Shown here piece after piece: positions 1,442 through 59,460 of a stretch of 64,000 nt of DNA. A program made the translations under genes and the position numbers. The notes beneath the pieces were generated by a model. The model was not told the DNA's origin and made no database searches. It worked only from the letters and a program-made list of their open reading frames with translations. Each line of letters begins with the position of its first letter. The stretch's first letter is position 1. This DNA comes from Amphiscolops sp. MND2022 (taxonomy: Eukaryota). Location of the stretch: positions 39,000,001 to 39,064,000 of the forward strand of contig OZ076409.1 of NCBI GenBank assembly GCA_964187785.1. The letters are read 5' to 3'.

Positions 1442-1455
1442 CTCCCCGGGGCGGG
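1442..1455 (-). promoter_or_regulatory. Polypurine-tract region of element A
   Basis: Minus strand reads CCCGCCCCGGGGAG directly followed by TGTCATG (start of the 3' LTR). The CCCGGGGAG core also occurs in the PPTs of elements C and D. Confidence 0.75.
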
Positions 1456-2566
1456 ATTTGGACTGAGAGTGCAGGGACCAAATGCGCAGAGGATGGTTGT
1501 CTCGGCGTTGGCTTCGACTGATCCTTCGTTTGGTTGGGGAGAAAATGGCCTTCGTTAGTTCTGAATTGGCATGTCCTTCGTTTGTTCTGTCCTGTGAGAG
1601 CTTCTCTGAGAAGAGGACCTTCGGTAATCGTCTTTTCTGGCATCATCCTGGGTGATTTCGGTTAAAATTTTCGACGCGGCAACTCTAATTCTTGGTCCAT
1701 CGAATGTCCGCTGACCTGCATTTTATTGGTTGTCATGCTTTTGACGGGAGTTTCGGCTGGTTATTTTCGGTAGAAGCTGATTTCTCGGAGAAAAGTTTCC
1801 CTCCAAAACGCCTACGCTGAGTAAACAATTCGATTAGCTTCACTGACAAATTGGCAGCGAGTCAGGGATGAATGAACGATGAATTGTTTGCTCAGCGAGA
1901 CACTGATGCTGTTTAGCGGAATGGCTGGCGCCGTTACTTGTTTACTCGCGATGAAAGGAGATGAATCGTTGCCATAGCAACTGTCAAAAGTTACTTCCGC
2001 TGCTCGACTTTTGAGTGAAAGAGAAAAGAGATGAATTCGTCGCCATAGCAACTGTTGCTCGATCTGATTGGCTGAGACTGAACTTATAACTGAAGGAAAA
2101 TACAACCGGTTGTCAGCAGCATTCTCATCCATAAATCATCCTCCATTCAAGTCGGTTTGAAAATCGCCACGATTTCCTTTGCGCGTTTCCGCTCAACTTC
2201 GTCGGTATAGATCTGAGACTGGCAGCTGTCAACAAATCAAATACTTGAAGTTTTTTGTCAAGTCCTGGGAGGGGACGATCCATTTTCAGAGAAGGCTTGA
2301 GTTGGTTGTACTGGGAAGAAAAGTGATGTCAGTATTTGAAATCGGAGAATTTTCATCGATTTTTCATCTTCTGAATTCAAGTATTTGATTAACATGGCAT
2401 TCAAGCTGCGCCGCTTTTTGAAATCTTCTATTGAATTTGTTCTTCTGTAATCATGGTTGATCAGGCCATTTAATTACTGATCAAATTCTCTGCTCCTGGA
2501 TTCTTCGATTTCTTTCCTTCTTTCACCGTCTTCCATTCTTTTCAGATTGTTTTGCAATTTTTCGCG

Positions 2567-5500
2567 ATGTCGGATATCAACTCCATCTATTCGTTACCGG
2601 AGACCGAGGCCACAGAAAGTAAGTGCACTATTTTTTCTCTTCTTCACAAACGGGCCGGGGAATAATTAGGAATTGAAGGCGTGTCTTGGTTTTAGCGGAC
2701 TCCGTTCACTCTGTCGGCATAATTTCCGAACTGACTACTTTGCAGACAGTTCCGCCTCAAGATGCTCCGATCCCTGCAGCATCTCACGCACCTCAGTATC
2801 AACCTGAGCAGCAAACTGAACAGGCCCCTAACGTCCCGTATCTTCCGCAGTGTAAGTACTATCCTTCCATTCTTCAGTTCAGTCTTCGAATCCCTCATAT
2901 CTCATCCTTACTCTGTCCAGTAGCTGACTCCTTTTCGTATGGTGTTTCAGACCACTACCCCTGGTATGCCTCCCTAGGCAGCATCACCTTCGGGTGGTAT
3001 GACCGCCACATGCGGGACATGCTGCGGGATAGCATCCAGCAGTACAGTGAGTTTGTCAATTTCCTTTTCACTTCTCTAGGCTATCGTCCGAACACTCCGA
3101 TGTGATTCCGATGTAAACATCTCATCTGCATGTAGTGTCCTTTGCGGTCGATTACCCATGTAATTCACCTTCGAGATGAATTTAGGATGTGTCATGAACA
3201 TTCACAGCTCTTCATGACTGACTCGCTGTAAATCCCATTTTTGAAGATGAGTTTTGGATGTATTCTTCTCCGGTTTTCTTTCTTCGCGCGGCGTACGCGC
3301 TCTTTCTTCTCTTATCGTCGTCGTCCAGTAACTGTTTCTTCTTTCAGGCCCCACACCGATCCACGCACCAAGGCCTCGTCCCATCAGCTATTCCGTAGGA
3401 GTAGGGACGAGTGATTTCGCCGCAACTAGTGCTGATGCTAGCACTCAAGGAGGGCCTCCTCAACTTGACTTGTCCTCGTTCCTTCAGGACTTGTCATTCG
3501 GGAGTGTAAGTTCTCCTGTCAGGCAGGCGCCAGTGTCGGTACTGTCGCCAGTGCTGAGGGGTTCTTTCGCCGCTAGTAGTCCTCCTCCTGCTCGTATCAC
3601 TCTCGACGCTGCTGTGAATGCTGTTGTCGATTGCGTGGATGCAGTCATCGATGCCGTTGTCGATACCTCTGATCGAGCAGTCCAGGCCGTTGTGGAAGTC
3701 AGTGAGTCCTCCACCTTCCATGATCCTCTTGTTGAGGAACCTGTCATCGTTGCCTCTTCTTCTGTTCCTGCCTTTTCAGTCAGCGGCACTGATACACTTG
3801 GTGATGCTTCCGTGAGTACTGCCGGCGGTGCTGAGACCCTACTTGTTGAAGTCCCTGGTGACTTCTCGTCCGACAGCCTTCTGCCTGCTGAACCTGACCG
3901 AGAATCTGCTTCTCCCAGTGCTGATCTCATGTCGACCGTGGCTTCTCCCATGGGACCCAGTCTACTGGATAGTGATGACGAACCAATCGCGTCCCGTCTG
4001 CCAGGTTAACTAAACAGCTTTAAACTGGTGAAGTATCTGATCAGTAGATTTTTCATTCATTTCCTTCTTCGCTTTTGCTTTCACTAGCATTTTTCACATT
4101 TTTCTTCTTTTCTATCCATTTTTCATCGTTCTTCTGTTTTCACTATATGGTTTTCTGCAGTTTTCCATTTTCCATCACATTCTCATCGTCAAAAGTCGTT
4201 GAACAATAGTTTTCGCTCTCTAGTCCTTTTTAGAAATTTCATCTCTTTTACATCTTTAAAATTTTCTCTTTTCGGTTTTCGCTATTTGTCGGTGTTTTCT
4301 TTTCAGTTTTCATCTCTTTTTCATCGTTAAGTTGTTTTCGCTCTAAAATATCTCAATTTTTGGTTCAAAGTCGTTCTATTTATCTCTTTTCCATCGTTCA
4401 AGTTTTTCATTCTTTAAGGTTTCCATTTTTCATTCTGGTGGTGTGCAAAATGCATCTCTTTTTCATCTTTTCGTTTTCTTCGTTTTTCGCTTATATTTCC
4501 TGATGAAAATATTATTTTACATCATTTTTTCATCACTCCGGGTGACTTTTGGAAGTTTGCGGTGGTTTTTTCATTTTTCAGTTTTTAAAGATTATTTTAA
4601 GATGATCTTGGAATTTTGTGGGAACGTGGTCGTTTTTAGTGGATGTGCTATGTGTTGGCATGTGATTATTTCTGTTTGTAGGGCGAAAAGTGATCAAGTC
4701 ATGGTGGTTTTCTCATGAATACTGTGGGCTTGCACTGGGCTATGCACGAAGTCATCAATCGCGGCTATCATTCGTTCGATGTTTACTGTGCAAGCGTGAT
4801 ATCAATGTTGGCAGCCGTGGTATCACTACTTTCATGGAGCATTGTCGTGGGCTCCGTCACCATCGTTTGGACTGTCTGATTCGTTTGTTTCGGGATTTAC
4901 CGTTGCGGCGACGCGACGGGTCATTCATGAGTAATGAAGAGAGTGTGGAGTGTAGGAGCAGCCTGGGCGGTGCAATGGTGCCGTTCATTGAGACGTGCCC
5001 CTCCTTTAGTGTACTGGAGGTGTTTGAGTTGGAAGCAGCTGGACGACCTGTGTGGGGGGACGAGGAGGAAGAGGATCTATTGTGTGAAAAGACGGTGCAT
5101 CTGTTCGTGTGCCTGGTTATTGACTCAATCTATCGTGGGTGTCAGTTCGCCAGCGTAACGAGTTTGTGGGAGGTGATGGTTGCGTCAGAGCCGCAACATG
5201 CCTCTCTTTTCGGTGTTACTTGCGAAGTGAATGACGTGATGGTAATTCGTATTTCTTTTTGTTTTTTGTTTCATGAAGGTTCGTGTAGATGGAAAAAAAA
5301 TACATTTAGTGGGTGGTTTTCCATAGGTAGTTTTGAAGCTTGGGTAGGGGGGATTTTCAACTATTAATTGTGTCGGGTTATTTTTAAGCGGATAGTGAAT
5401 TAATGTATAGTAAAGTTGATGTTTGTTTTTAGAGTGTGGTTCTACTGAGTTTGTGGCCGTACGCGATGAAGAGGCTAATCACTCTGTGGTCTAACTGTGG

Positions 5501-7347
5501 GTTCACTAGCTTTCATGTGGCTGTTGGGCAGGGGCGCGTGACTGGCACGGTCACAATGTGTTCTCTAGAAGGGATCAGTCAGTACTGTGTCTTCAGTTTT
5601 TGTCTGTCTCAGGATTGGGAAAAACGAGTTGTCACGTGGATGATTAACATGTGGTGTTGTTTGCTTGGAGAACCTGTTCCACTTGGACTGTGTTGCGATG
5701 CGTTGCCACAGCTGGGTGGACTGTTCCAAGCCGCCACTGGCGTTGGGTCACTGGAGTTGAAGACGCTGTCATTGTGTGAGATCAGTCGGACAATTGTGGA
5801 CGTGGGAGGGCGGGCGCTCGGCGGGACTGATATTCATGTGGTGCTGAATCATCTGCAGAAAAGACTGAAAGGATATGTCAGGGATCCTCTGTTGTTGAGC
5901 TGCCCTCATCTGTTGCAGGTCGGTGTAGTCTTCCGCTTTTATTTGAGTGTTACTATGAGTTGTACTCTTTGTCTGTTTCTGTTGTTTGTATATTGGTAGT
6001 AGTTTGTATTGTAATATTTTGTTTTATCTATGTGGAGCTTGTTATGTTTTGTTTAGGCGATTTTATCCGGGGAAGTCTACGTGTGGACTCTTGCTGATGT
6101 GTGCGATGAATTACGTGCCAATTGGGCAGAAGTGCTGTGTCTAGTTCGATTCGCTTCGGGAGACGGGCCAGTAGATGCGTTGGATCTTACTTTGAGGGTG
6201 GAGTTCGGGATCCCAATCAGGCTCCGGGCACTTAGTATGGTCTATCGTGCTTGTTAGTATGTTGTATACTTACCGGGTGGGAAGTTTCTGTAGTTGGCCG
6301 TTTTTACGTATTCGAGTGTTTAATCAATTCGCATTTTTCGGGAAGGGAACGGGGGGGGGGTTAGTCCGATTATTTACTGTGTATAGAATTGTTGTGTTTT
6401 TCATTTCAGTAGTGACGTCGTACGAAAAGAGTTTCGGGTCTTCATCATTGCGGAGTTGCTACTGGGCGATCGAGAGTGCATTCTTTGTGAAACGCCTGCT
6501 GACTCTACTGGTTGACGAAGAGAGCCTGCCCACTGATCTGGATATCCGTGGGTGGTTGTTTGTGGATGTAGACAGTTATGTTGTGTCAGCGACTAAGTTA
6601 CAAGCCCTTATCGCGAGTTTCAGCTCGGATGAGAATTTGACGGAAGATGTGGCTGTGTATGAAGAGGATGTGTCCCGAGTGCCTAATTTCTTATTGTCTA
6701 TCGTCAGGAACGTATTATTGCTACCAGGGATTCGTGACGATCTTGCTTTCGTGCGAAGTGTCTTTAGTTCACCCAGACTGGTTTGTGTGGCGGAAACTGA
6801 TCTTGTGGCGGAAATTCGCAATTTTACTGGTTTACTTGTGGAAATGGGGCGGATCAGTTTAGTCGAACAGGATCGAATGGAGCTCGGATTTCTGGAATTT
6901 ATAAGGGCTTTTCGGTGCGAGCCTAGGCCAGCTGGGGCGACTGCCGAGTATTCAGCCGTTGATCTGTTGCGTTGCTGTTCCAGTCGCGGGTCACAGAGTC
7001 TGTTACAACTTGTCTTTTGCCTGGGAGGGGTGGTGCAGAGCACTTGCAATACCATATGCGAAGGGATCGGGCACCTGCCGAGCGATGTCATGAGCTGTGT
7101 GTGTGCAGTAATCTCTGGTTATTTGTCTGCTAATCATGTGCGAAGTTACGGTAGTGTCAGTGGGCCACTGATGGAAGAAGTGATGGAGTCGCACAGAAGG
7201 CTCGTCGATCTATCAGAGATTACAGAGGGCATGTTGTGGGACGACGTCGGTATCGTGGCTGGGGAAGATTATCGTCTCCAGTTATATGCTAGTCTTGGTT
7301 ACGATGTGACCGGGGAGCGGGCTGCCAGTCCCGAGATTGGAAACTGA
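2567..7347 (+). CDS. Spliced antisense accessory gene of element A, about 1046 aa: low-complexity N-terminus, C2H2 (BED/TTF-like) zinc finger, degenerate hAT-transposase-like region
   Basis: Exons 2567-2618, 2696-2851, 2951-3046, 3348-4004, 4682-5241, 5433-5918, 6057-6252, 6410-7347. All 7 introns are GT..AG with matching phases (1,1,1,1,0,0,1). Total 3141 nt with no internal stop. C-x2-C-x16-H-x5-H at 4780-4860 (CLLCKRDINVGSRGITTFMEHCRGLRH). The exon 4 donor (CAG|GTTAAC) is the weakest link; if it is unused there are two genes. Confidence 0.8.
4173..4534 (-). promoter_or_regulatory. CATC-N7-CATC motif array inside intron 4 of the antisense gene
   Basis: Motifs at 4173, 4240, 4311, 4381 (TATC variant), 4453, 4520, about 70 bp apart. 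Confidence 0.75.
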
Positions 7348-7447
7348 CTTATTAACTGTTTATGTTGTTCATTGTTTTGCTATATAATTTGTTGTATTTA
7401 CATATTAGTGTAGTTATTCATATGTTGGGAGACCCATGAAAAAGGTC

Positions 7448-7453
7448 AATAAA
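7448..7453 (+). terminator. Candidate polyadenylation signal of the antisense gene
   Basis: AATAAA 100 nt downstream of the TGA at 7345-7347. Confidence 0.55.
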
Positions 7454-7677
7454 TGGAAAGCACAGTAATGACCATAGTGCGAATGATACAAATCCAGATG
7501 CTACGGCGGAAAGATCGGTAGTAGTGTGTTTACAACATTAGTTATTTTGGTGCCCAACAGCTGTTTTTCTTTTGAGTTGTTAGTGATAGTTACAGAGGAT
7601 ATTAAGTACGTGTAAATCAACAAGTTCGTCCAACAGTTCACTTGAAGCATTGTCTTCGGTATTTTTGTATCATAGAT

Positions 7678-9943
7678 CATCGGTCGCGCATCGCTTTTAT
7701 GGTGTTCATCGTTATTACATCTCGTGGTAGTGTAAGTAACTCGTCAGCGTTTGATCTTTGATTTTTCATCTCATTTTCATCACGTTTTCCTCGGTCGACC
7801 AAGCGACGTCGTGAAAACTGTTTTTGTCATCGTTTTTACATCTTTCGGTGCGTCAGAAACATTGCATGTTGTTACATGTGGTTTTTCTACGTATTTCATC
7901 ATTTTTTCATCTTGCGTTTGATTTGAGCACTTTCGTGCGTTATTTGCTATAGTTCATCGTTTTTGCATCGCAAGTTTGTCTTGTTCAGTTTCTGCTCATT
8001 TTGCTGTATAGTTCATCTTCTTTTCATCGTGCGTTTGAAATGTACGGATTTTTGCGTGTTTTCGATGTTATTTGGCTATAACGTAAGCGGGGGTTGCATT
8101 TTTCGTGTCCGGAGGAAATTTTTATTAATATTGTGGTGTTTCGGATTGTTTTCTTCATGTATTTTAGCGTTATACGGTTATAACCATTTGTCGTGTTTTT
8201 GAATTTGCATGAATTTTATGGTACATGTGTTTTAATCATCGTCGTCATGTTTCTAATTTGTCAACTTCGGAACGTCATTGCATGTATTTTTAGTTCGAAT
8301 TCTGGTGACCGCCGCTTGCGTGGCAGTCGAAAATAAGTTCACTCAGCAGTGGTACTGATAGCCTGTAGGCGTGCAAGGTACTAGTGGCTTCAGTCCAGAG
8401 CTGGGTGAGTGGAGCTGCTCCGCTCCTTTCAGATAAATGGAATCTCGTAGTTTCGGGCTATATATAGTCTATATGTCATTTTTTCGGTCGGTTGTTTGCC
8501 ATTATTCGTCGAAATGGGTTTGTCCATTTGACGGTCAGTCCGATCAATCAATGTGATTGACATCTACGGTTATGCATGTGTCCAGTTTTAGACTATCTGT
8601 TTCTTGTATTTGCATGTATGGATGGTTACATGATGTGCTCTTTTAAATGGGTTTCCCCATTATTGACATGTCGTTATATGTTCGGTGGTAGTTTCATGTT
8701 TTCTAATTTTATTTTCGTTCATTTGGACAGGGCTTTGTCGTCACAAAGCCCCTACAAAACTAACTGAGAATCCACTAGCCGCTGGATAACCAACGCAGCA
8801 AGCTTCATCCGAATATGGTTGTGAGCTCCCCGCCTCAACTAACCAGCACTCTTTTCAGAGAAATGCCAGCCAGCACGAAGGAATGATTTTAGTTTTTCGG
8901 TAGGGGTGTTTTGTATTTTATGAGCTGATGTTTACTGGGGGGTGCTCACTCCTTTATTAGTTTTGTAGGTGTTTCGTCAGTTCTTATATTTTGCATGTAA
9001 GTTAGTAGACTTCATGTATTTTCGATTGTTTGTTTCATTTTTATTCGTCTAGGTTCGGATGGTTTTGGTGTGAATTGCATATATTATCTCATTCATTTTT
9101 GAACGGTACATGTATATTTCCGTGCGTTGCTCATTTGTATTGCATGTAGTTTGGAATTGTTAATTGCTTTCGTGACGTCATTGATTTGGCAGGTCTTTGA
9201 ACTTTACATGTATTGATCATTTCATTTTTGTGTCGCATAATTTCGTTGCATGATTCGAAATAAGGTCGGTTGTTTTTTATCGTTTCGTGGAGTTACATGT
9301 TGTTTGCGAATTAGCTGATTTATTGTGATGTTATGTTGATGGTGTTTCCCATCACAAAGAGGTGTTGGTAAGTCATTTAATATTTTCGAATTTCCATTTA
9401 GACTAAATTCATCGTTTTGACATCCTCCAGCGAAGCTAGAGTATTGTGTCAGGTTAACGATAAATTCGGTCGCGATTTGATGGTAGTGTCCATCACAAAT
9501 TCATCTCGTTAATTGATTTCATGTAATTTATGAATAATTGGATCGAGTTCATCGCTATTTCATCCTCTGGCCGAGCTAGAGTCTTATGATAGCATGAACG
9601 TGAGTGCGTTCGCATTCTGATGGTATTTCCCATCTCAAATGCATCGTTAGTAAATATTGCATGTTGATTGGTCTATTTTTTGACTGAGTTCATCACTTTT
9701 TCATCTCTCGTGTGTCTGAGTTAAATTTTCGTGTGGTTTCATCCTTTTTTCATCTCAAATTTTGTGTGTTGTTTTTTCTGGTTTTTTGATCGTTTTTCAT
9801 CCGTTTTACATCTCGTTTTGTTTGTATGCGGTTTTCATGTGATTTTTAGTAACTTTTCATCCATTTTACATCTTCATGTACTTTTTAAGTTAAAATTGCA
9901 TGTAATTCGTTCGTTTTTGTGATTTGTTCATCCGTAACACATC
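7678..9943 (-). promoter_or_regulatory. Non-coding spacer with two CATC-N7-CATC arrays (7678-8028 and 9410-9943)
   Basis: Motifs at 7678, 7707, 7767, 7828, 7897, 7955, 8014 and 9410, 9491, 9550, 9631, 9691, 9740, 9798, 9858, 9929. Confidence 0.75.
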
Positions 9944-9970
9944 TCAGATTTAAAGTGAAACTTTTCTTGG

Positions 9971-12900
9971 CTAAATCGTTACGTCTATTTTGTTGGTCTT
10001 TCTCAGTGCGTTTCTAGCTGAAGTAATCTCATGAATGAGGAAGTCTGGATACGTTTTCGGTGTAGGGTTCTCACGTAACCTGTACCTACTTTGATTTGAT
10101 CTAGACGGTCTAGAACTCATCCTTTCTTCATTTTCGTTTTGCGTGTTTGTCTGTTGTGACTGGTTTTCGTGTTGTTCGTCTCTCAGAGGTACTCTTATCC
10201 TACTTTCATCGCGGGGAGGCGGTAGAATAATTTCTTCTCGCGTTCCAAATCTAACTGTAGGTGGTCTAAAGTTGTTGTGATCAGTTTCTACTTGCTGATA
10301 GTCTATCCTCGTGGTTATTTCTGGTGGAATTACTTGTGGAGTGTGTTGTTCTTGTACCCGAGGAATTGTTTCTTCTGAAGGCTCTTTTTCGACCAAGTCT
10401 TGATCTAGATTGTCATTCTCATCCTGATCTACTTCGTCGGTCATCGGAATATTCGAGTCGAAAATGTCCGTGTCTTCAACCCTTTCGGTATCTGGGTAGA
10501 GATGTTTGGACATGTTGATGTCGTCAATCGGAAATTCCGGTTTGAACAATCTCAGTCGCATGCGATGTACGCACTGAGTTTGGTGTGTGCCTACTTTGCG
10601 GATGATGTAGTTGCTATCGGATAGCACTTTAATCACCTTGTACGGTCCTTTCCAATGGAAAGTTTTAAACTCTTCTTTGCTTCTCTGAGAGTCGTACTTA
10701 GGGTCTAGTAGGAACACAAAGTCATTCACCTTCAGTGGCTGTGCTCGTGCTTTTCTATCATAGTACGTTTTGTACTTGTGATAGGCGGAAATGATGTTGT
10801 CTAGATTGTCTCTGAAGATAAAATTCATTTTGTCTAGAATTTCGTTCACGTCTTTGCACTTTGTTTCAGCCGGTTTGTTTGCGTTTCGGAATTGCAGATC
10901 TAGTGAGTTGTATGGTGTTCTTCCGTGGAAAATTTCGGTTGGTGAGCATTTCAGTGAATCATGATACGTTGTGTTATGGGCCATGATTGCTATGTCGACA
11001 TAGCGGTCCCATTGTGGTCTGTCTGCGTTTACACTAATCTTAAGGATCTTTTTCAGTTTCGCGTGCGTTCTCTCCACCATGCCTATTGTCTGCGCGTGCT
11101 TTATCGTGGCATGGGAGATGTGAATATCAGCCGCTTTCGCGATTTCAGACAGAAGTTCAGCCGTGAACGCCGTGCCTTTGTCGGTCAGAATGTGTTTGGG
11201 CACATACGCGTGTTTTGTGAAGATCGACAGTAGTCCTCTGACTACGGAATGTGTGTCAGGTCTCTTCAGCGGAACGGCGAACAGGTAGCGCGAAAAAACG
11301 TCAACAGCCGTCAGAATGTGTGTAAAACCGTTCGATGCCGGGAGTGGACCAACGATGTCTATTTCCAGCAGGTCTTCTGGTCCGTCGCACGGGTCGTAGA
11401 TTTTTTGTAACGGTGGACGTAGTTGCGTTTCTTTTACACTTTTAGACTTCATGCAGTTTTCACATCCGTCAAGGACTTTTTGAACTTTATAGGCTAAGTT
11501 AGGAGAGTAATATCTTTTACGAAGTTCATACAACATTTTCTTTAAACCAGGGTGTCCTTGTACCGGGCTGTTATGTAGAGTCCTAATTATTTTCAAAATA
11601 CAGTCTTCAGGAACGACTAACTGCTTATGAGACTCTAGTCCCGTGTGGTCAAAAAACTGTCTGTACAAGACACCGTTTACAACTTGTAGGCGTTTTCGAT
11701 TTTTGTACAACTTTTGAAAAAACTGGTCTTGCATGTTAACTGGGTGTTGCAAAATTTCAGTACCTTCTAAAAATCTAATCATTTTTTGGATAACCCAGTT
11801 ATTTTTCTGGACCTGAATTAGATCGATCCCCTCGGCGGGGCTAACCTGACTCATTACCGGGTGTGATAATGATACTTTACGGATGAATTGCGAGAGTTGA
11901 ATCGGCTCGTCCACGTCTGTGAGGCGGTACGTCAGATGGTTGTCAGTCGCGAAGTCATCTGAGGCCGCAGTTCTCTCACAGTTGGTGAACTTCATCCCTT
12001 TCCCATCGTCATGAGCCACGTCAGTGCCAGTTGCCAATTTCATCTCTTTGACATCCTTCTGGCGTTTGCATCTGAGTGGTTCGCTCGCGGGGAAGTAATC
12101 AGGCTCGTCTTCCTCCTGTTTTGGTGTACGGGAGGCGATGTCGATCTCGATCCTGTGAATTGGAATAGTATCAGTCAATTTTAAATGTACACGGTCTTCA
12201 GGTCTAATCTCAAGCCGAGATAAGTAATCCGCTGCGGGATTTTCAACTCCTGGAACATGTGCTAATAGAAAATTGAACTGAAGGGTTTGATCGCAAAAGT
12301 TCCAAAGTGAAGGCGGGATATGCTTCGCCTGGAAAAATCTAGTCAAGGCCTTATTGTCAGTCATAACAATGATGGGTTTTTTCGCACCCCACAAAATGTG
12401 GCCAAATTCATCGAATGCAAAGTGCATAGCTAAAAACTCTTTGGCATACATTGTTAGAGACATCTGGCCGCCCTGAAATTTCTTAGAGCCAAATGCAACA
12501 GGGGCGTATGTATGTTTGACTGACGGGTCTGCATAATCCTCGATTAACAACACATAGCCTGCAGCGTGTTCGCTGGCGTCACACATGATTACCAGTTGTT
12601 TATCTGGTAATGGCAATTTCAGAGACACTTTTGTTGCTTTTAACAAACTTTCATTAATTTCAAAAATAGCATCTTTATGTTGTTGGTTCAGCTTGAAAGG
12701 GACGTCTTTCTTGATGAGTTCCTGTAAACAACAAGTTTTATCAGCTAGACGGGGAATGTAAGACCTGTAAAAGTTCACAAAACCAAGATAACGTTGCAAC
12801 GCTTTCACTGAATTGGGGGGTTTCAACTTCGTTAAATAGTCTGTTACGCGTTTTTCAATGGGAGCAATACCAGTGCTAGAAATGGTTTTTCCCAAGTACT

Positions 12901-15064
12901 CAATTTGTTTTTGTCCAAATTCACATTTACTCATGCTAAGTTTAAGACCAGCTTTTTGCAATTGTTGAAAAACAAGTTCAAGGTTGGTAATCAATTATTC
13001 GGGTGAGTGTGCTGCAATTCCAATATCGTCAACGTATTGGGCACAGCGGTCCGCTTTGACCAGGGGGTCCAAATACTCACGGATTACTCCTGTAAATGCT
13101 GACAAAGAACGATTAAGACCTTGTGCTAGACGTAAAAATGCAAAAGTTCTAGATCCAAAATTAAACGATAACAGTTGGACAGATTGCTCATCGGCCATTG
13201 GAATGCAATGGTAGGCCTGGGAACAATCAAGTTTGCAGAAGTACTTTTTCCCGGCCATGTGTTGGGCAGCGTCAGCAATTGTTGTTACGGGATGATTGTG
13301 CTCACCGTAATCGTTTTTGATCAGGTGGTTTATTCTTCTCAAGTCAACTAAAATCCTCAATTTACCATTAGGTTTACGCTGAGCAAATATCGGGGAAGAG
13401 TATTTGCTGTGAGGCAAAGTAGTTATAATCCCGTACTCTTGCATTAGGGCTAACTCCACGAGCAAATCGTCCTTCAAATTTGTCGGAGTCGGGAGACTTT
13501 GTGAATAAACAGGTTCTTCATGTTGAGGTGTTAACTTAACTTTAAAATCAGTGTTCATGCCAATATCAAAACGGTGTCTAGCAAAAATGGAGTTGTACTT
13601 TACCAGCAACTCCTCTACCTGTAACCGTTGAGACGGAGTAAGAAGCGAGTCGTCCCAGTTGAAGTTCTTCAGGAAGTTCATCCGTTGTTCATCGGATTGG
13701 GACGGGTCAAGCTTCTCGAGCTCTCGCAGTGCCAGAATCTCATCATAAATCCGTCGCTCAATTGCGTTGAGTTTGTCTGGCTCACTGCACGTCTCGGGAG
13801 TTGGGTACCACTTGGTTGACTTCATTTCAGGGTTCACAAACAGTTGGTTGATCACTGCTTCGGCTTCATCTGGATACTTGGTGATCAAGTTCAAGTGTTC
13901 CACTGGCATGGGCGTGATGTTTGCCGCCTGGTGTGGTGTCGGGATGCGAAAGTGTGCCAGAGTGGTGTTGGCTTCAAGTGTGTACGTGTGGTTGTTTGGG
14001 TTGGTGACCTGGATTGTCGTCTTGCCCTCGTCTAGGTCAACCAAAGCTGGAGAAACAAGCAAACACGTCTTTCGCATGAATCCAGGTGAGCCCTCAACTG
14101 TACCAGTTGTAAGTGAGATGTCCGCGTCACTGTGGACCTGTATCATCACTTGATGGAGAGGAGGGATCACTGTTCTAGTACTGGAACACAAATCAATTAA
14201 ACCAGTTTTGAATCTGTTGTTCTTTTGCTGTCTAACTTGCATGGACATCATGTGATTAGGGAAGTGGACAAGGTGGTTTTTGATGTCTAAGTTGACTGAG
14301 TACTTTTCAAAAAAGGACATTCCAATTAAAATTGTTCCCATTGTTGGAAGGATTAGGAACGTTTCTTCGAATACTTTTCCAGCAACGTAAAATCTAAGTA
14401 AGACTTGCTTACGCACTGGGACTAAGTTCCCGTTTGCTATTTGAATTTTGAAATTCGGAGGGGGGAATTCTTGAAGGATGGCTTCTGGATGAGCCGTTGT
14501 TATTTTTCGCAGTTCGGCTTCAGACATTGCACTTTGTATTGCGCCTGTGTCTAAAAGTGCGCTGTTTTCGTATTTGTAAACTTGAAGAGGGACGTACAGC
14601 ATTTTATCTTTCTTGTTTAAATGTAAAGTGGGACTGAGAACGTGAATTTCTGTTTTAATTGCATGTTTTTTAGTTTTTGAAACGTTAATACTACTCTGTT
14701 TTGCATGTTTTTTAATACTAAGCCGTTTGTCGATTGTTGAGTGTGAAGTCGAGTCGTCGTCTAGATGGTGGGTTTCCATCTCTTTGGCATCTTCCACCTG
14801 CCTCATGGTGTTTGGTTGCCAGTTCATCGTTTGTTCATCGTTGATTTCAGCGAGTGGAGAAAAACGGCTGCCGTTGAGTTGACTTGCATTTCTCATCGCT
14901 TTTTCATCGTTGGAAAGTCTTCGCTGATAGACGTCGTCAGCTTTTGGTCGTTTGTCCAGTGAAGGCTGCCATTTCTTCATTGGACGGTCGTGTGTAGTCG
15001 GTTGAGTCGAAAGTCGTTGGTCGCGCGTTGTGTTTCTAGCGGGCGGAAATCGTGGCGGAATCAA
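9971..15064 (-). pseudogene. pol: Pol of element A (protease, RT, RNase H, integrase with GPY/F) with one in-frame TAA at 12995-12997
   Basis: Motifs: LLDTGA (PR); YVDD (RT); CDAS..E..TDN..ADYLSR (RH); H-x6-H..CENC, IDIVG, TDKG, GMVER (IN); WKGPYKV. ORFs 12995-15064 and 9971-12994 are in the same frame, separated only by the stop. Confidence 0.93.
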
Positions 15065-16566
15065 AAACCCTGATTTATGTCTTCATCAGAGTAGGTTTCT
15101 TGGTCTTCTTCTTCGGTGACTGCTTGCATAGGGTTCATCGGCTTTTGTTGTCGTTTTAAGTCTTGTCTTCTAGTTCTGTTGTCATCTTGTGAATTCGTTG
15201 CGTATGGAATCTTTCCATATGCAGAACTGCTTTCTTTAGGGACACGTCGTCTGCAATCCCTTGCTGAGTGGCCTGTGTAACCGCAAATCTGGCAGACCAA
15301 TTTTGGATTGTATTTCGGCTTATCTGGATCGGCTGCTTTCTTCATTGGGATTGCATCCTCCTTCTTTATGCCGTTCGCTTCGTCTCGTTGTCGGGCGCGA
15401 CATTCCGTTTTGCGGTGTCCTGTCTTTCCGCAGTAGAAACATTGTCCTTCAAATCGTTTTCGTTCTGTCGGTTGTGCGGTCGTCGTTGTTGTTGTAGGCT
15501 TCGTCGTTGTAATCGTAGGTGGTGCTGAGGAGGTGACCGCGTTGAATGGTTGGATTGCCGTAGGTGGCGCGACGTACTGCTGGTACTGGTATTTTCGCAT
15601 TAGGTAGGTTTTGATTTCCTCTGGGGAGCTCTCTTCTTTGTTTGCCATGGTGAGCTCTTGTTGAATCTCGACTGGCAGTTTTCCAAACAGGAACATTTTG
15701 ATTATTCTGTCGGCCTCATTGCCGAAGGCTTGTTTGGCAGTCTTCTTGAGATTTTTGAGGAAATCGCCGAATGTTTCTGTTGTGGGATCATAGCGTGCTT
15801 GATCCCATTTGTAACGGGCCACTTCCTTTAGATCCTCTTTTGCAAATTCTTTTCTGAAGAGGTCGAGTACGTCCTTTAGTGTTGTCATCGGCGTTATCTG
15901 GATGGATTGTCAGTATTCTATTGCGTCATCTCTCAAAAGGCTTTGAAAGAAGTGTAGTTTGTTCTCCTCGGTGATTTTGTTGGCAAGCGGGCTAAGGTGG
16001 TTGAGGAGAAGGTGTTCAAATTCGACGAATTTGTCTTTTTGGCCTCTGAAATTTGGCACGTGTGTCTGCAGAAGCTTCGTGTTGGTGGTTGTGTTTTTGA
16101 TCCGTTGGGGGATCGTCTCGATTGCATTGAGCAGTCGTTCCTCATTGCTTCTGGGGGTTGATTCTCCTTCGTCTGAATCGTCTTCTTGGTAACTTCTGAA
16201 GTTGGTGAAGCTGGTGGTCGGGCGGTTGGAGCGGGTTTCTGTAGCTCCTGTCACCATGTCGAACCCAACCGTGTGGGTCGGCTTTGAAGGACCTTTCGAG
16301 GTTGACTGTCGGTTTTCGGTGTCTGTCTTACTTATGACAGCCATCATTAAGTCCTTCAGTTGACTGAACTCATTCTGTAGTTCGTTTATCTTTCTCTCAT
16401 AACTCTCTTTTATTTCAGATAACTGAGACGAGATATCAGAAACCTCGTTGCTATCAGAGTCATTGGCAGAAGACTGAGCCATGTCTGGGTCCGTTTGAAT
16501 GGGTGTTTCTGATGAGGAACTAATAACTCTTCCGCTTCTGAGTTCGGTGCCTAGATCTGGGTTCAT
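15061..16566 (-). pseudogene. gag: Gag of element A with two CCHC zinc knuckles and one in-frame TGA at 15910-15912
   Basis: CFYCGKTGHRKTEC and CQICGYTGHSARDC. ORFs 15910-16566 and 15061-15888 are in frame (AIEY*QSIQITPMTT). Confidence 0.9.
15064..15070 (-). other. Putative -1 ribosomal frameshift slippery site G GGT TTT at the gag/pol junction
   Basis: Gag ends CAG GGT TTT TGA. The -1 frame GGG TTT TTG ATT CCG is the open pol frame. Fits X XXY YYZ. Confidence 0.75.
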
Positions 16567-17050
16567 AGAGGTGAGAGAAAAGGAATTATGAGTGAAGACT
16601 GGATTCTGGATGATTTTCGATGTATTTTACTATTTTGTGCCGTTATTCGAACTCAAATTCACTATTTCTGAACTTGAGATGTAAATGCGATGAGTTTTAC
16701 AGTAAGACAAGGATACTAGTAAAGAATGAGAATAGTTAACGAGGATTAAGTAGAGTTCATCCAAATTTCATCGAATAGATATCAATCAAGAAATTACTCA
16801 GAGTTGTGAAGGTAGCGTTATTTACGATGAATAAGAGATATGTTTTCTAGTTCAAATCTGTCGTAATTCGTCCAACTGGACAGTAGCTAATCGCAATTTC
16901 GGTCTGTGTAAACTCTAATGGCGGTCCAAAATACAGCAGTTCACGTGTCTTTTCGGGCTGGTAAGACGCTAAATCTCTTACCAGCCGACTCTTATTGGCT
17001 ATTGCCAGTTGGTGCTAATTGGTAAGTCACGTGACCGGTGTTGTGAACTG

Positions 17051-18491
17051 CCGCAAGTTGGCCAAACCACATGGTACATCTACATATGCTAATTATGACT
17101 AATCATCACTTTACAATGTCGCAATTGCCTGCACACAGTGTCATGGTTTCTATAGCAACTCAAATCATTCAATAATGTACTAATTTCAAGTCAAAACAGA
17201 GTAAGCTGCATCACAGGATGAGAAAACGATGTTTTTCCAACTAATTCTAGCATTAAAATCAATACTTCAAAAGCAAAGATGGAAACGCGATGAATTCGTC
17301 AGAATATTTGCTGATTTTCAAGTCTAGTTTAGCTCTGGATGAAAATGCGATGAATGGTGGTCTTTTAGCTCGAAAATCAACACGATATGAACTGACGATG
17401 ATAAAAGGATGAACTCGTCTTCAAAATGAATGATTTCCAGCACAATTTAAATCAACGATGGTAAAAGGATGAACTCTCCTCGAAAATAACTAATTTCCAG
17501 CACTAGTGAAATTGACGATGAATTCAGGATGAATTCAGCCAATAAAACAGGTGAAACAGCTAATTCTGCAGTGAAGACAAATATACGATGACTTTAGGAT
17601 GAATACATTCAATAAAACAGCAAAATCTAATGAATGAAATTCCAACGATGGGTTTAGGATGAACTCAACTGAAAATTCGGCAAGTTCTAACGTAAGTCGA
17701 ACTAGCGATGAATTTACGATGAACTAGTGATGAGTTAATCTAATAAAACAGATATCCAGCACTTCACTCTTTTTTAGGATGAATTAAGGATGTACTTTCT
17801 CATTTCTTGTAGTTTCTGTTCAGGACGATGAAATATAGATGTGTTATGCTCTTTTTAAGAAATGAGAAGCACATTGAAGGTTAATAATCACAAAACGACG
17901 ATGAGTATAGGATGGCTTTCATGCATTTTAAAGTCCCGTGAGATCCGCTGATGGATCACTAAATAAAATCAAATATATGTCCCAAATTTTGTTCACCCGC
18001 AATCTTGGCGATGTGATTGCGATGAACCTTGATAATATAGCACCGTAATTTCACTAATAGATCAAGTTGTAGGATCACTAAGTCCGCTGATGGATTAGTG
18101 ATGAACTTTCCTGAAATTCGTCACGACTACAAGTCCTGAGGCGAGGGAGCTAGTAGAAGTTACAGATTCCATTATTTCTACATCTCTCGGTCCAGTCTGA
18201 CCGGAAGACTTCTCTCCCTTATCGTGACAAACCAATATTGAATAAGATAGCACATTAAAAGCTATTGGCAAGATCATTTGTGCGGACACCGGAATTAGAG
18301 CGCTCAGTATTAAGTAAATATATATAGCTCAAACTCAGGGGGGATAGGGATTAAAGTACAAGTAACGTAGGGTTGCTCACAACCATGGCTCTTATTATAT
18401 GACATCATATTGCCCATATCTAAGTACATAAGACATAATATTTACATTACAAATATTTAGTAGATTATATTTCCATCATGCTGGCATGACA
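17051..18491 (-). repeat. 5' LTR of element A (inner boundary uncertain, at or before 17051, or 17139)
   Basis: Matches 1-1441 and ends ...CATGACA followed by the unrelated flank GGGAC. No canonical tRNA PBS was recognised next to it. Confidence 0.92.
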
Positions 18492-18919
18492 GGGACAATC
18501 TAATTCGAACGATTAACAGGTAACGACCAAACTCCAGTGTTAGAGGTTGGAGTCTAACTCTAACTTTGAGAATAAAGAACATGATCAGCGAACGACTCTA
18601 TTTAATGGAGACCATGCGGTAAAATGAAACTCAGCTTAGCTGAAGCTTAATGTGGTTTGTTTGACAACAACTATTTCTTTTTACTGCTGCTAAACTGAAC
18701 TTTTTGTTTTACGAGCTTTGCGCTCTGCCTCATCCGGTTTGTTATTTTCCGCCCATATTCCATATGGGAAAGGAAAATATTCAAATCAAACGTTTTTTTT
18801 TTACAAAATTTGCCAAGCACCAAATTTATATTTAACTTTAAGGGTGTTACCCATAGAATTCAAATCATATAAATTTAGCTTCGTACGATTTGTATTTGTG
18901 GAGATTTCTGGACTTTTTT

Positions 18920-21100
18920 AGTTGACCCCAATGACCCCCGAATGACCCAATAAAGACTCCAAAATAGGAAAATTTCCAATTTTTTTAAGTTTAAAGGCAG
19001 TTTTTGTCATTTTTTTTTTATAGATATCGTATATTAGAATGTTGAAAACGTTTAACAAGGCACAAACTCGTTGCCCAATAGTCTTTTATGAAGAGATAAT
19101 TGCTGTTTTCCAGAAGGAAAAGATCTCAAATTGACACTGGAAATGACAAAAATCCAAACATTTCCCAATTTTCAAAGTTTTTTTTTGCAGTTTTTGTCAA
19201 ATTTTAGATAGCCTTCGTGGATTAGAATGTAAAACACGCTCACATGGCACTACTTCGTTGTCCAGTAGGCCTTTCCGGAGAGATAATTGCTGTTTTCCAA
19301 ACGAAAAAGTCTCAAATTGACACCGAAAAAGACAAAACTCACAAAAGTTTTCAGAGTTTTTGTTTTTTTATTAAAGTTTTGCGGATTGGAATATTTGGAT
19401 GTTTTCACGATTTTGCGGATTGGAATATTTTAAGGGGTCAACAAGGAGAGAGTGGGTTGTCGAGTAGGCTTTCTCGAAGAGTTTATTGCAGTTTTCTACG
19501 TGAAATTGTCTCAAATTGAACGCGAAAACGACAAAAAACCCAAAACTTTCCATTATTCCAAGCTTTTATGCATTTTTTGTTAAAGCTTTGACGGTTTTCG
19601 TGGATTGGAAACTTTAAAAGTGTCAACAAGGAGAGAGTCGGTTGTCGGGTAGTCTTTATTGAAGAAATAATTGCAATGTTCTGAATGAAATGTCTGAAAT
19701 TGGCATCGGAAATGACAAAAAGCCCAACTTTTTCCAATTTTCAAGGGTTTCATGCCTTTTTTCCGAATTTTCGACCGACTTTGTGGATTGGAACGTTGAA
19801 AAGGGTCAACAAGGAGAGAATGTGTTGTCTAGTATGTTTTTCCGAAAAGTTTAGGGCAGTTTGCTATATGAAAAACTCTCAAATTGACACCGAAAACAAC
19901 AAAAAACCCAAAAGTTCCAATTTTCAATTTTTTTATTGCATTTTTTGTAATGGTCTCGACGGGTTTTTGGATAGGAATGACCTAAAGGGTCAACAAGGAA
20001 AAAATTGGTTGTCCAGTAGGCTTTCCCGAAGAGTTTGTTGCAGTTTTCTCCGTGAGAATTTCCCAAAATGACACCGAAAACGACAAAAAACCCTAACTTT
20101 TTCCATTTTTCAAAGATTTTATTCAATTTTTTTTAAAGTTTCTTCGGTTTTCGTGACTAGAAATTTTCAAAGGACCAACAAAGAGAGCGTGGGTTGTCGA
20201 AGAGTCTTTAATGAAGAGATAATTGCAATGTTCTGAATGAAATGTCTGAAATTGGCACCGGAAATGACAAAAAACCCAAAATTTTCCAACTTCCAAGGAT
20301 TTTATGCATTTTTTCCAAATATACGACAGACTTCGTCAATTGAAACGTTGAAAAGGGTCAACAAGCAAAAAATGTGTTGTCGAGTATGATTTACTGAGGA
20401 GCTTACTGCAGTTTTTAAGTGAAAATTTTTCAACTTTACACCGATAATAAAAAACCTCAAAGTTTTCCACTTTTCTATGTTTTAATGCATTTTTGTTAAC
20501 ATTTCGACAGACATCGTGGAATTGGAACATTTTGAAGGGTCAACAAGGAGAAGATGGGTTGTCGAGTTGTCTTTAATGAAGAGATATTTGCAATGTTCTG
20601 ATAGAAAATGTCTCAAACTGACACCGTAAGTAACAAAAGTCACAAAATTTTTCAATTTTACCGCTTTTATGAATTTTTCCTAAACTTTCGACAAACTTCG
20701 TCAATTGAAACGTTAAAACGAATAAACAAGGAAAAAATTTGTTGTCCAATTCGCTTAGAAAAAGTAAAAATGCAGTTTTTGAAATGAAAACTGTCCGGAA
20801 ATGACATCGAAATACAAAAATTCGAATGTTTTACGATTTTCATTTGTTCTATTATTGTCAAAATATCGATAGACTTCGCGGACTAAAATGTTAAAACGCT
20901 AAAACATGGGGAAATATGTTGTTTTGAGGAGCATCGTTACGAGATAAGTTCAATTTGTTAAAGATAATTGCATCAAATTGACCATGAAAAGTCGGAAAAA
21001 TTGAAGTTTTTATCGTTTTTGATGCAATTTCTGTACAATTTCCGATAGATTTCGTTCTAAACTCCAATACAATATCTCAAAAACATTAAAACGAGGTATG
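18920..21100. repeat. Diverged tandem array, unit about 184 bp, about 11 copies
   Basis: The AAATTGACACCGAAAA-like anchor recurs near 19128, 19314, 19513, 19697, 19881, 20066, 20249, 20432, 20615, 20798, 20975. GGTCAACAAGGA and GAAGAGATAATTGC blocks also recur. Confidence 0.85.
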
Positions 21101-59039: not shown

Positions 59040-59460
59040 CGAAATGACCCCAGAATGACATAAAAATGACCCCAAAGTGACAAAAATTGCAGAATTTGGG
59101 ACCTTTAACGTTTTTAGGCACCTTTTGTCAAAATTTTGACAGACTTTGTTGATTAGAATGTTTGACACTTTCGACCATGAAACAAATCTGTACAGTACGT
59201 TTTTTTGAAGAGATGAATGCAATTATTTGAGAGAAAAATGCCTCAAATTGACACCGAAAACAACAAAATTTCCAAAAAATTCCAATTTCCAAGATTTCTA
59301 TGCAACTTTTGTCAAATTTTCGAGACGAAAATTTTTGAATAATAATTTTTGGCGAGATAAAAAATTTCGTGAAAGAAATATGCCACAAAAGACTTCAAGG
59401 ATTAGAACTTCAAAACCGTTTAAGAGCTGGTGACTTCGTTGTTCAGTAGGCTTTAAGAAG
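59040..59460. repeat. Second copy of the ~184-bp-unit repeat family, interrupted by element D
   Basis: Shares the TGACCCC leader repeats, GATTAGAATG, GAAGAGAT and CTCAAATTGACACCGAAAACAACAAAA with 18920-21100. Confidence 0.7.

Follow-up and report, generated by a model that had tools for sequence, protein, structure and literature searches.

Organization of the Element and Its Antisense Gene

The 64,000-nt stretch of Amphiscolops sp. DNA analyzed here (the window) contains, on its minus strand, a young Ty3/Gypsy LTR retrotransposon with a multi-exon gene lying antisense to it, between pol and the 3′ LTR (Table 1). Pfam searches identified gag followed by pol on the minus strand, with the pol domains in the order PR-RT-RH-IN, and the element has the other hallmarks of the Gypsy class: LTRs with TG..CA ends, a target site duplication (TSD), a primer-binding site (PBS) that starts with TGG, and a short purine tract. 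The first-pass annotation had delimited the LTR differently; its ends and the 5-bp TSD set the length at 2235 bp, with the right copy complete and the left copy beginning 794 bp outside the window. A reading of the long terminal repeat as a tandem dimer was dropped once the TSD had been discovered. With only 3 mismatches between the LTRs over 2235 bp, the family is recently mobile, and it is abundant. The gag open frame starts within the 5′ LTR and crosses the PBS. As previously noted, gag and pol of this copy are each interrupted; we located a single in-frame stop in each frame.

Table 1. Features of the Gypsy element and its antisense gene (positions in the window).
Feature	Position	Strand	Basis or remark
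3′ LTR, visible part	1-1441	−	15 CATC-N7-CATC pairs ≈60 bp apart, minus-strand reading
Purine tract GGGGAG abutting 3′ LTR, probable PPT	1442-1447	−	sequence; putative role
Upstream non-coding stretch, probable antisense promoter and 5′ UTR	1442-2566	+	by position; 3 motif pairs
Exon 1, ATG at 2567	2567-2618	+	spliced frame, copy comparison
Exon 2	2696-2851	+	spliced frame, copy comparison
Exon 3	2951-3046	+	87-100% aa identity in L021-L023 and L030
Exon 4	3348-4004	+	last exon of acidic-arm part (exons 1-4)
Intron 4	4005-4681	+	5 CATC-N7-CATC pairs ≈70 bp apart
Exon 5, BED-type zinc finger and subsequent helical region	4682-5241	+	Pfam, hhalign, conservation
Exon 6, predicted helix/three-strand sheet/helix	5433-5918	+	structure model, low confidence
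Exon 7	6057-6252	+	spliced frame, copy comparison
Exon 8, helical region, stop TGA	6410-7347	+	aligns with C-terminal half of hAT-subgroup transposases
3′ non-coding region	7348-9970	+	18 motif pairs, mainly in clusters at ≈7670-8025 and ≈9400-9940
AATAAA, candidate poly(A) signal	7448-7453	+	sequence
pol, PR-RT-RH-IN	9971-15082	−	Pfam; in-frame stop TAA 12995-12997
gag, two zinc knuckles	15061-16626	−	in-frame stop TGA 15910-15912
Primer-binding site TGGTGACAGGAGC, abutting 5′ LTR	16244-16256	−	sequence
5′ LTR, 2235 bp, TG..CA	16257-18491	−	17 motif pairs
TSD GGGAC	18492-18496		identical 5 bp left of 3′ LTR

The proposed joining of eight exons into one coding sequence was reconstructed, and all junctions hold. 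The seven introns all have GT..AG borders, and the spliced frame of 3141 nt encodes 1046 aa plus a stop, with no internal stops. The exons have a GC content of 48-59%, compared to 32-43% for the T-rich introns, and retention of an intron introduces an in-frame stop in six of the seven cases. The exception is intron 2 (99 nt), making this the least forced junction. The AATAAA reported downstream of the gene is indeed present and is the only one between its stop and pol. The conservation of the splice sites suggests plus-strand transcription from a promoter belonging to the gene itself, followed by splicing.

Conservation and Selection

Twenty related loci were fetched from the genome; after exclusion of the window copy itself and four partial loci, 15 near-full copies remained. 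All seven GT/AG pairs are kept in every one of these, and 11 of the 15 have an open spliced frame. Protein matches to more diverged copies end at the identical GT/AG borders, and the borders of exons 5-8 are retained in lineages that are only 23-67% identical. Such conservation of splice sites, and the ending of protein matches at shared borders, is beyond chance. In all six diverged copies whose reading reached pol, the gene adjoins pol in antisense orientation, including L043 and L044, in which the gene is at 23-45% aa identity per exon beside a pol that is 66-67% identical. Among the matches listed, 16 of 20 cover the entire 8.5-kb region, and a first look genome-wide gave 1101 and 1620 candidates for two exon-8 alleles.

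For exons 5-8, comparison of the window with seven diverged copies (21 pairs in the calculation, with alignment rows containing stop codons excluded) gave a pS of 0.72-0.77 and a pN of 0.21-0.22, corresponding to a dN/dS of ≈0.1 or to saturated dS. Close copies gave a dN/dS of 0.21-0.33, a value possibly flattered, since introns differ less (≈0.03) than synonymous sites (≈0.09). Thus, the idea that this is a stably inherited accessory gene stands up to a check of the genomic copies: position and splice sites are shared across many copies and lineages, and dN/dS is well below 1. Selection has maintained the gene as a fixed component of the Gypsy lineage, and its position, splice sites and dN/dS place it with the antisense accessory ORFs of the aORF-3R class.

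The second half of the gene varies independently of the element. Alleles of exons 5-8 that are only 42-67% identical occur within backbones that are 93-100% identical (L022, L042), and these alleles swap freely among backbones. The mosaic breakpoints fall around exon 4 and intron 4 and immediately 3′ of the gene.

The Antisense Protein

Exons 1-4 encode a 320-aa Ser/Pro/Ala-rich acidic arm that contains no Lys, has a net charge of −30 and holds a conserved word, D-x-[SA]-T-Q-[GT]. This composition suggests a disordered arm resembling activation domains. It is followed by a BED-type zinc finger (≈4684-4863) of the form C-x2-C ... H-x5-H-H, in which the Cys and His residues are conserved. The Pfam zf-BED match (E = 0.0016) was found in four of five members, at 18.8 bits compared to a cut-off of 20.6, and hhalign gave P = 1.3e-4; the assignment is moderately supported. 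The finger is the most conserved part of the protein, with 69-86% aa identity, while the body falls to 23-38%.

We considered the possibility that the body, too, came from a transposase. An Ac/Hermes-type ancestry was not supported, as the seven hATs picked from this genome by PF05699 matched in the BED finger alone, and another hAT subgroup was therefore sought. A first motif pattern for this subgroup returned nothing; a second yielded one broken genomic copy and 37 metagenome loci, as well as a viral locus that was a chance match. The subgroup, typified by L076/P0096 and presumably equivalent to PANTHER PTHR37162, has near-invariant D, D, CxxH, W and E residues and 58 matches in this genome. 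The exon-8 profile matched that of 92 subgroup transposases with P = 1.1e-5, a probability of 82% and a score of 50.8, compared to 12.7-19.4 for eight shuffles, 18.7 for the reversed profile and 14.8 for Ac-type hATs. A colinear alignment over 601 columns gave P = 9.8e-6. Because the subgroup was picked for an expected resemblance, these P values are pairwise rather than database-wide. Exons 6 and 7 taken separately had no significant profile match to the subgroup, the global-mode alignment scored like the controls, and there was a second, off-diagonal match with P = 0.002-0.003. Single-sequence HMM scores to the subgroup loci were weak outside the BED finger, and PF05699 itself was not matched in the gene exons scanned. 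Taken together, homology to the hAT insertion and C-terminal domains is moderately supported, and the gene probably derives from a hAT transposase with a BED finger.

Catalytic residues are lacking. The exon-8 alignment extends to the motif that carries the catalytic Glu in the subgroup, and this Glu is absent here. No acidic residue is conserved across lineages at any of the three DDE sites, the second of which is placed by a weak alignment, and the CxxH and RW motifs are not kept. Given the alignment, the DDE triad has been lost.

The predicted exon-6 model (pLDDT 55) has an RNase H-like strand order with no conserved catalytic Asp; for this low-confidence model the best comparison had Z = 5.4, and Hermes ranked 12th (Z = 4.6, rmsd 4.0, 83 aligned). 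The exon-8 model gave only generic helical bundles in VIA (Z up to 5.9), Foldseek found no match at E = 0.001 for either model, a PDB sequence search found none under E = 1.2, and the best ESM Atlas values (0.85 for exon 8, 0.75 for exon 6) are leads only. A search of 1.84 billion proteins with the exon-6 profile gave 38 matches, all short exon-like ORFs, and the 10 examined were unnamed ENA entries; all 24 matches to the exon-8 profile were likewise from ENA. Two of the exon-6 matches were compared with this genome and occur in it at 99-100%, and thus show no relative in another species. None of 4528 candidates among longer proteins was an exon-8 homolog, and none of 76 pattern matches in a metagenome scan with exon 5 was confirmed.

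Arrays of CATC-N7-CATC

The non-coding DNA of the element is studded with pairs of CATC words whose starts are one helical turn apart. In five non-coding segments there are 43 pairs at exactly 11 bp, versus 7 at other spacings up to 30 bp. Such pairs are rare elsewhere: one in 19.2 kb of a neighboring element (element B), which is merely 26-27% related in pol, and none in 26.3 kb of flank. Genome-wide, triple arrays number 15,324, compared to 69 for the reversed pattern, an excess inflated by copy number. The arrays are densest in the LTRs (10 pairs per kb in the visible part), and those in intron 4 and the 3′ region are nearly as dense. Within a region, all pairs point in the same direction, and the orientation reverses between LTR and internal region.

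The motif is preserved as its surroundings change. In L021 and L023, the CATC bases are 96-100% kept, compared to 75-88% for the other bases, and L043 and L044 have 10 and 16 pairs, respectively, in 3′ regions that give no blastn alignment with the window. The first 500 bp of intron 4 are 88-91% identical, even where the flanking exons are swapped. The base following CATC is most commonly G (29/82 in the window, 41/52 in L043 and L044), which reads as CGATG on the opposite strand, and inverted quartets whose gap is fixed at 9 bp occur three times in L043 and six times in L044. The unchanged motif is matched by a BED finger that is the most conserved part of the protein, and the finger probably binds these arrays. 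Since 14 hAT loci (mostly coding DNA, with the ends not covered) hold only 0-1 pairs each, the arrays could not be traced to hAT subterminal repeats.

Discussion

The picture that emerges adds three things to the first-pass annotation: a BED-finger hAT transposase as the probable ancestor, the arrays of CATC-N7-CATC, and the exchange of alleles. We propose that a Gypsy ancestor acquired an antisense-oriented hAT DNA transposon in the interval from pol to the 3′ LTR, and that the transposase gene was kept as an accessory. Introns in antisense orientation escape the splicing of a retroelement's genomic RNA; those of this gene would have survived for that reason, the genomic RNA being the complementary strand. 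A promoter of its own on the plus strand would drive the gene, and splicing would yield a protein consisting of an acidic disordered arm, a BED finger and a hAT body devoid of the DDE triad. A dimer or oligomer might then bind the CATC half-sites, which are set a helical turn apart and arrayed every 60 bp in the LTRs, intron 4 and the 3′ region, and, by analogy with VANC and TnpA, activate the LTR or shield it from silencing by the host, both in cis and in trans. Copies with broken gag or pol could therefore still supply the protein. We give even chances to a self-encoded DNA-binding activator or anti-silencer of this kind. The full scenario, in which a retrotransposon domesticated a transposase for this purpose, with a phased lattice of sites and deeply diverged, exchangeable alleles kept in an arms race with host silencing, is put forward more tentatively. 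The activator model neither requires nor explains the free swapping of exon 5-8 alleles.

Several known systems bear on this proposal. The ORFs of maize Grande (gene23), rice RIRE2 and Retand (TRP28) occupy the same antisense position between pol and the 3′ LTR in most copies, and these plant Ty3/Gypsy elements likewise have an extended pol-3′ LTR segment with repeats and a product proposed to be a nuclear DNA-binding regulator (PMC7264820, PMC11963269). However, neither the TRP28 domain PF04195 nor any other plant domain had a Pfam match in exons 4-6 and 8, and the gene described here has seven introns, whereas the text of the Retand paper does not contain the word "intron". A review concluded that the dissimilarity of the plant ORFs to other transposable elements gives a nested origin no support (PMC7264820); the present gene, in contrast, matches a hAT subgroup. 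Outside plants, brtn lies antisense behind pol in the Boty-like Gypsy elements of Botrytis (cited in PMC7264820, PMC8365987), but its protein is different, and ours, with its BED finger and hAT body, is much larger.

In VANDAL elements of Arabidopsis, the introns and non-coding regions carry motifs in dense arrays to which VANC binds (PMC5735166), and transposases activate cognate copies, TnpA of Spm being itself derived from a transposase (10.64898/2026.08.24.746577). The likeness is one of working principle only: in each case the element encodes a factor that has no transposase activity, and its own non-coding DNA is densely set with a short motif that is rare elsewhere. No VANC/PMD or TnpA domain was matched by Pfam in the exons scanned. 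VANC and TnpA belong to DNA transposons and work through DNA methylation. CpG is undepleted in the present element (o/e 0.77-1.26), making a VANC-style demethylation route doubtful. Moreover, VANC motifs vary between families, while here the motif is constant and the protein body varies.

A BED finger is common to the hAT subgroup and to BEAF-32, DREF/ZBED1 and DAYSLEEPER, and that of Hermes binds a 4-nt motif in an AT-rich context, with phasing being crucial (PMC10368747). The subgroup has a colinear body and a similar length from finger to end. Compared to these, the antisense gene lacks the DDE, CxxH and RW motifs and TIRs with a TSD, and has an additional 320-aa arm and seven introns; the domesticated proteins were recruited by the host, whereas here the domesticator would be a retrotransposon. 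Accessory modules are known to cross element classes: the plant mobile domain is common to Gypsy elements, MULEs and the host genes MAIN/MAIL1, and bdelloid LTR elements capture ORF3s (PMC5418596, PMC5408684), while VANC is structurally MAIN-like (PMC13547354). These modules are not transposases, however; the ORF3s are env-like, GDSL or DEDDy, and their expression is described as env-like, by way of spliced messages.

The same origin and sites would also suit a repressor, or a BEAF-like boundary factor, that limits copy number or insulates the element. The motif and BED evidence is neutral on the direction of the effect, the arrays lie at both ends of the element as well as internally, and CGATG is one base from the CGATA clusters of the BED protein BEAF-32B (PMC5021357). 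We nevertheless regard a negative role as unlikely, given the abundance and recent mobility of the family and the apparent resemblance of the lysine-free acidic arm to activation domains. Less likely again is a conflict gene under balancing selection, acting in incompatibility, addiction, or defense, be it against related elements or against a restriction factor of the host, with the arrays bound by a host factor or serving as a mere anchor. This would suit the presence of 42-67% identical alleles in near-identical backbones, and a body that has diverged to 23-38% where the finger is still at 69%. However, the divergence took place under strong purifying selection, recombination between co-packaged RNAs could presumably yield the mosaics with no selection for alleles, and the element itself provides a BED finger suited to the arrays.

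A role at the cDNA or integration step, in which the protein would bind the arrays in the LTR cDNA for nuclear entry or for tethering to target chromatin, appears improbable. The LTRs do hold the densest arrays, hAT proteins oligomerize on transposon ends (PMC10368747), and comparable roles have been proposed for the plant antisense ORFs (PMC7264820), but the arrays of intron 4 and of the internal 3′ region, which lie a long way from the cDNA tips, are nearly as dense. We are slightly more skeptical of an RNA motif acting in export or packaging, with the protein a Rev-like RNA binder: the shared direction of pairs within each region would be expected, but the flip between LTR and internal region means that, in the genomic RNA, one of the two bears the motif and the other the complementary sequence, and the 11-bp pitch and the inverted quartets at a fixed 9-bp gap fit double-stranded DNA. 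There is hardly any room for a neutral passenger, or for a hAT transposon that is nested in the element and mobile in its own right. Related hATs do occur in this genome and the ancestry is hAT-like, but no TIR with an 8-bp TSD flanks the gene (the best 8-mer matches are 4/8 around the gene and 5/8 around exons 5-8), the DDE triad is missing, the gene is under strong purifying selection, and its position is identical in 6/6 diverged copies with pol read, although few of the >1000 candidates were read in context. Of the nested DNA transposon raised earlier, the one-off insertion thus falls away, while an ancient origin of the gene from such a transposon is probable from the subgroup match.

A 2020 review described antisense accessory genes in LTR retrotransposons as being of unknown origin and function (PMC7264820), and a literature search of titles and abstract openings returned no case of an antisense gene of hAT origin in an LTR element. 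The present family offers both a traceable origin, in a hAT transposase, and a candidate target, CATC-N7-CATC, and with these in hand the function becomes testable. Genes of this kind are readily overlooked, or mistaken for host genes in annotation. If our proposal is true, it was another parasite, and not the host, that domesticated a transposase into a transcription factor. If the protein activates or protects the element, sequence-specific anti-silencing encoded by the element itself would extend from plant DNA transposons to a retrotransposon, and this action might account for the >1000 candidate copies in the 1.07-Gb genome.

Gene Model and Host Element

The antisense gene lies on the plus strand of the Gypsy element, opposite gag and pol, which are encoded on the minus strand with pol in the order PR-RT-RH-IN. 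The eight exons proposed in the first-pass annotation, once seven GT..AG introns are removed, make up 3141 nt encoding 1046 aa, with no internal stop, while gag and pol of the same copy each carry one in-frame stop, as had been described. The exons are richer in GC than the introns, and retention of any intron other than intron 2 (six of seven) introduces an in-frame stop. In the 1.07-Gb assembly, the window corresponds to C1:39000001-39064000. The element, which extends outside the window, has 2235-bp LTRs with TG..CA ends, a 5-bp TSD (GGGAC) and a PBS with a TGG start. Only three mismatches separate the two LTRs, showing that the insertion is very young.

Positions of the antisense gene, sequence features and other repeats
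Feature	Position	Description
Antisense gene	2567-7347	Eight exons, between pol and 3' LTR
Word in exon 4	~3440-3460; also L043:213, L044:141	D-x-[SA]-T-Q-[GT], kept in 10 of 15 loci scanned; arm otherwise fast-changing
End of exon 4	3970-4004	Last 20 aa, ending DSDDEPIASRLP, nearly invariant in L021-L023 and L042; exon middle diverged
Intron 4	4005-4681	
Exon 8	6410-7347	
3' region	7348-9970	AT-rich
GC-richer island	8740-8990	21-bp inverted pair (8743-8763/8957-8977); possible RNA or DNA element
gag reading frame	16257-16626	Starts within 5' LTR, continues over LTR end and PBS; ATG straddles LTR/PBS junction
Tandem array	19055-20779	Diverged, ~184-bp units; one distant copy at 59235-59323
Second large Gypsy element	26199-~45020	~700-bp LTRs from 26199 and 44320; 8 mismatches in first 690 bp
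Extra sense ORFs of second Gypsy element	29092-31977 (961 aa); 28054-29091 (345 aa)	After integrase; one frame, stop between; no Pfam match
~4.4-kb repeat	47585-52479; 59461-64000	Unannotated; two diverged inverted copies, terminal direct repeats
BED-like match in ~4.4-kb repeat	50356-50736	Weak, E 0.26
Arrays elsewhere in the genome	G000:C1:7628234-7639734	Two LTR-type arrays ~11 kb apart, intron-4-type arrays between, 3'-region arrays absent among those listed; possibly an internally deleted copy retaining part of the antisense gene
Gene-family pieces in tandem	G000:C6:65036424-65049794; C7:2717142-2720312	~6.4-kb and ~1.1-kb spacing
Exon 8 copy	L024:165-1097	85% identity; exons 4-7 unmatched in 3 kb upstream; fragment or rearranged copy

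Conservation and Selection

The first-pass annotation had regarded the gene as a stably inherited accessory gene of the family, and copies elsewhere in the same genome bear this out. Among the 20 DNA matches listed, 16 cover the whole pol-to-LTR region at 91-100% identity. All seven GT/AG pairs are present in 15 non-self full copies, 11 of which have an open spliced frame, and dN/dS is below 1, as had been predicted, at 0.21-0.33 in 13 of these close copies, the other two being too similar to measure. However, the introns of the close copies are less diverged than their synonymous sites, so the argument for selection rests on the diverged copies. A genome search with exon 8 (107 scored of 1101 candidates) gave identity classes near 97%, 82% and 52-63%. 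At L021-L033, loci with diverged copies, the protein matches stop on GT/AG at homologous positions, and exon lengths are unchanged (186, 162, 65 and 311 aa); introns 1-3 were seen in the close copies and L021-L023 only. Two acceptors, read by eye, are lost in the decayed copies L023 and L024. Between the window and seven diverged copies, pS is 0.72-0.77 and pN 0.21-0.22, which shows purifying selection.

Deeper alleles were reached through database matches that turned out to belong to the same genome. In L042, L043 and L044, the exons are 23-55% identical and the borders of exons 5-8 that could be placed, all but one L043 donor, are the same; the adjacent pol is 97%, 66% and 67% identical to that of the window, respectively. 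The position is fixed: in each of the six diverged loci whose sequence was read out to pol, the gene sits antisense next to it. Its presence at the same place beside a pol only 66-67% identical indicates, from these alignments, that it predates the split of pol lineages a third apart. The gene is thus real and under selection.

Compared with the window, L022 and L042 are 93-100% identical throughout the 3' region and over the greater part of the pol end (L022 also in the LTR) and ≈90% identical in intron 4, but only 54-73% identical in exons 5-8 and 61-71% in later exon 4. Old alleles of the protein body have therefore moved from one young backbone to another, with template switching as the probable mechanism.

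Origin of the Protein

Residues 1-320 form a Ser/Pro/Ala-rich arm that contains no lysine and has a net charge of -30. The exon 4 word listed in the table looks like a putative binding motif for the dynein light chain LC8, and as such would fit a protein that dimerises. Exon 5 starts with a BED-type finger, under the Pfam cut-off (E 0.0016), which is the best-kept part of the protein (69-86% identity across lineages). Beyond the finger, no named match emerged from searches of Pfam, PDB and Atlas or from fold comparison. A low-confidence predicted model of exon 6 has an RNase H-like strand order; in its structural comparison several RNase H-like folds tie and Hermes transposase ranks 12th (Z 4.6), a result of little weight.

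Kinship with Ac/Hermes-type hATs gained no support, as seven hATs of the same genome matched at the finger only. The exon 5/6 junction bears a resemblance to a different hAT subgroup, which is present in the same genome. Members were retrieved by a short motif in which exon 8 had no role; two of them exceed the Pfam hAT dimerisation cut-off. For one member, 194 homologs were gathered, the named sources being cnidarians, fish and a tick, and a 92-sequence alignment was built, with near-invariant D, D, CxxH, W and E. The exon-8 profile matched this subgroup with a score of 50.8 (P 1.1e-5, probability 82%), compared to 12.7-19.4 for eight column shuffles, 18.7 for the reversed profile and 14.8 for the Ac-type set. 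The BED finger also matched (P 1.3e-4), while exons 6 and 7 alone gave no significant match to the subgroup profile. In a permissive local run, 601 columns were colinear with the subgroup from end to end (P 9.8e-6); in global mode the score did not rise above those of the controls. The DDE residues are lost, with no acidic residue conserved across lineages at the three catalytic positions, and the product is not an active hAT. It is quite probable that the gene is a domesticated, catalytically dead hAT transposase.

Phased CATC Arrays

The most enriched hexamer in the non-coding DNA of the element is TTCATC (52 versus 7.4 expected). CATC half-sites are paired at exactly 11 bp, or one helical turn, in 43 cases, while the other spacings, up to 30 bp, together yield 7. 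The count covers the visible 3' LTR, the upstream region, intron 4 and the 3' region, together with a 424-bp part of the 5' LTR. The whole 5' LTR holds 17 pairs and the internal region 36, with a pair-to-pair period of mostly 58-71 bp. Pairs are rare elsewhere: one in 19.2 kb of the neighbouring element B, none in 26.3 kb of flanks, none in exons 5-8 and seven in 6.7 kb of gag-pol.

The phased arrays are conserved. In L021 and L023, the CATC bases are 96-100% conserved, compared to 75-88% for other bases, and the spacers vary. In the 3' regions of L043 and L044, which do not align with that of the window, CATC/GATG at 11 bp ranks first in an unbiased count, and the pairs often form inverted quartets with a 9-bp gap. 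(These two regions also have in common a near-identical block of ≈100 bp, possibly an RNA or DNA element.) The whole genome contains 15,324 triple arrays versus 69 for the reversed pattern, a count multiplied by copy number; judged by eye, most of the first 100 listed resemble members of the same Gypsy family. The commonest five-mer in the arrays is CATCG, or CGATG on the opposite strand. Hermes BED domains are described as binding a strictly phased 4-nt motif within AT-rich sequence (PMC10368747), and the BED finger of BEAF-32B as binding CGATA clusters (PMC5021357).

Proposed Function and Comparison with Known Systems

Transcription from an antisense promoter, located in 1442-2566 or within the LTR, would yield the spliced mRNA, and the introns would be kept in the genomic RNA because it is the opposite strand, on which AATAAA is also scarce (7 versus 14.5 in local shuffles). 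The protein would oligomerise via its hAT body, bind the CATC arrays by its BED fingers and activate or shield the element via its acidic arm, a reading that we hold with about even confidence. Since CpG is not depleted in the element, any anti-silencing would more likely be aimed at chromatin or small-RNA control than at DNA methylation. The allele exchange is left unaccounted for by this model.

The main rival, a repressor or insulator, would act on the same arrays as the activator or shield, and we consider it unlikely. A conflict gene is rather less likely than that, a role at the cDNA or integration step is doubtful, and RNA binding is more doubtful again. A nested DNA transposon, which the first-pass annotation had named as the reading that would overturn its own, is highly improbable: no TIR with a TSD was found around the gene.

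By position, the gene belongs to the class of antisense accessory genes, and fungal brtn reportedly has such an antisense layout. Plant antisense ORFs have the same layout (PMC7264820; PMC11963269); according to a review, it is not known where they come from or what they do, and they show no similarity to TEs (PMC7264820). The antisense RNAs of Arabidopsis Copia elements are described as multi-exon but non-coding (10.1101/2024.04.02.587720). The logic of a self-encoded activator or shield is that of VANC (PMC5735166) and of TnpA, itself derived from a transposase (10.64898/2026.08.24.746577), but both are factors of plant DNA transposons. PMD (PMC5418596) and the bdelloid ORF3s (PMC5408684) are modules common to different element classes, yet are not transposases. 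By analogy, the gene may work in a VANC-like manner without being a VANC. At the level of titles and abstracts, the literature searched contained no antisense gene of hAT descent in an LTR element. With its probable origin and a well-defined candidate target, the gene opens a long-standing question to testing.
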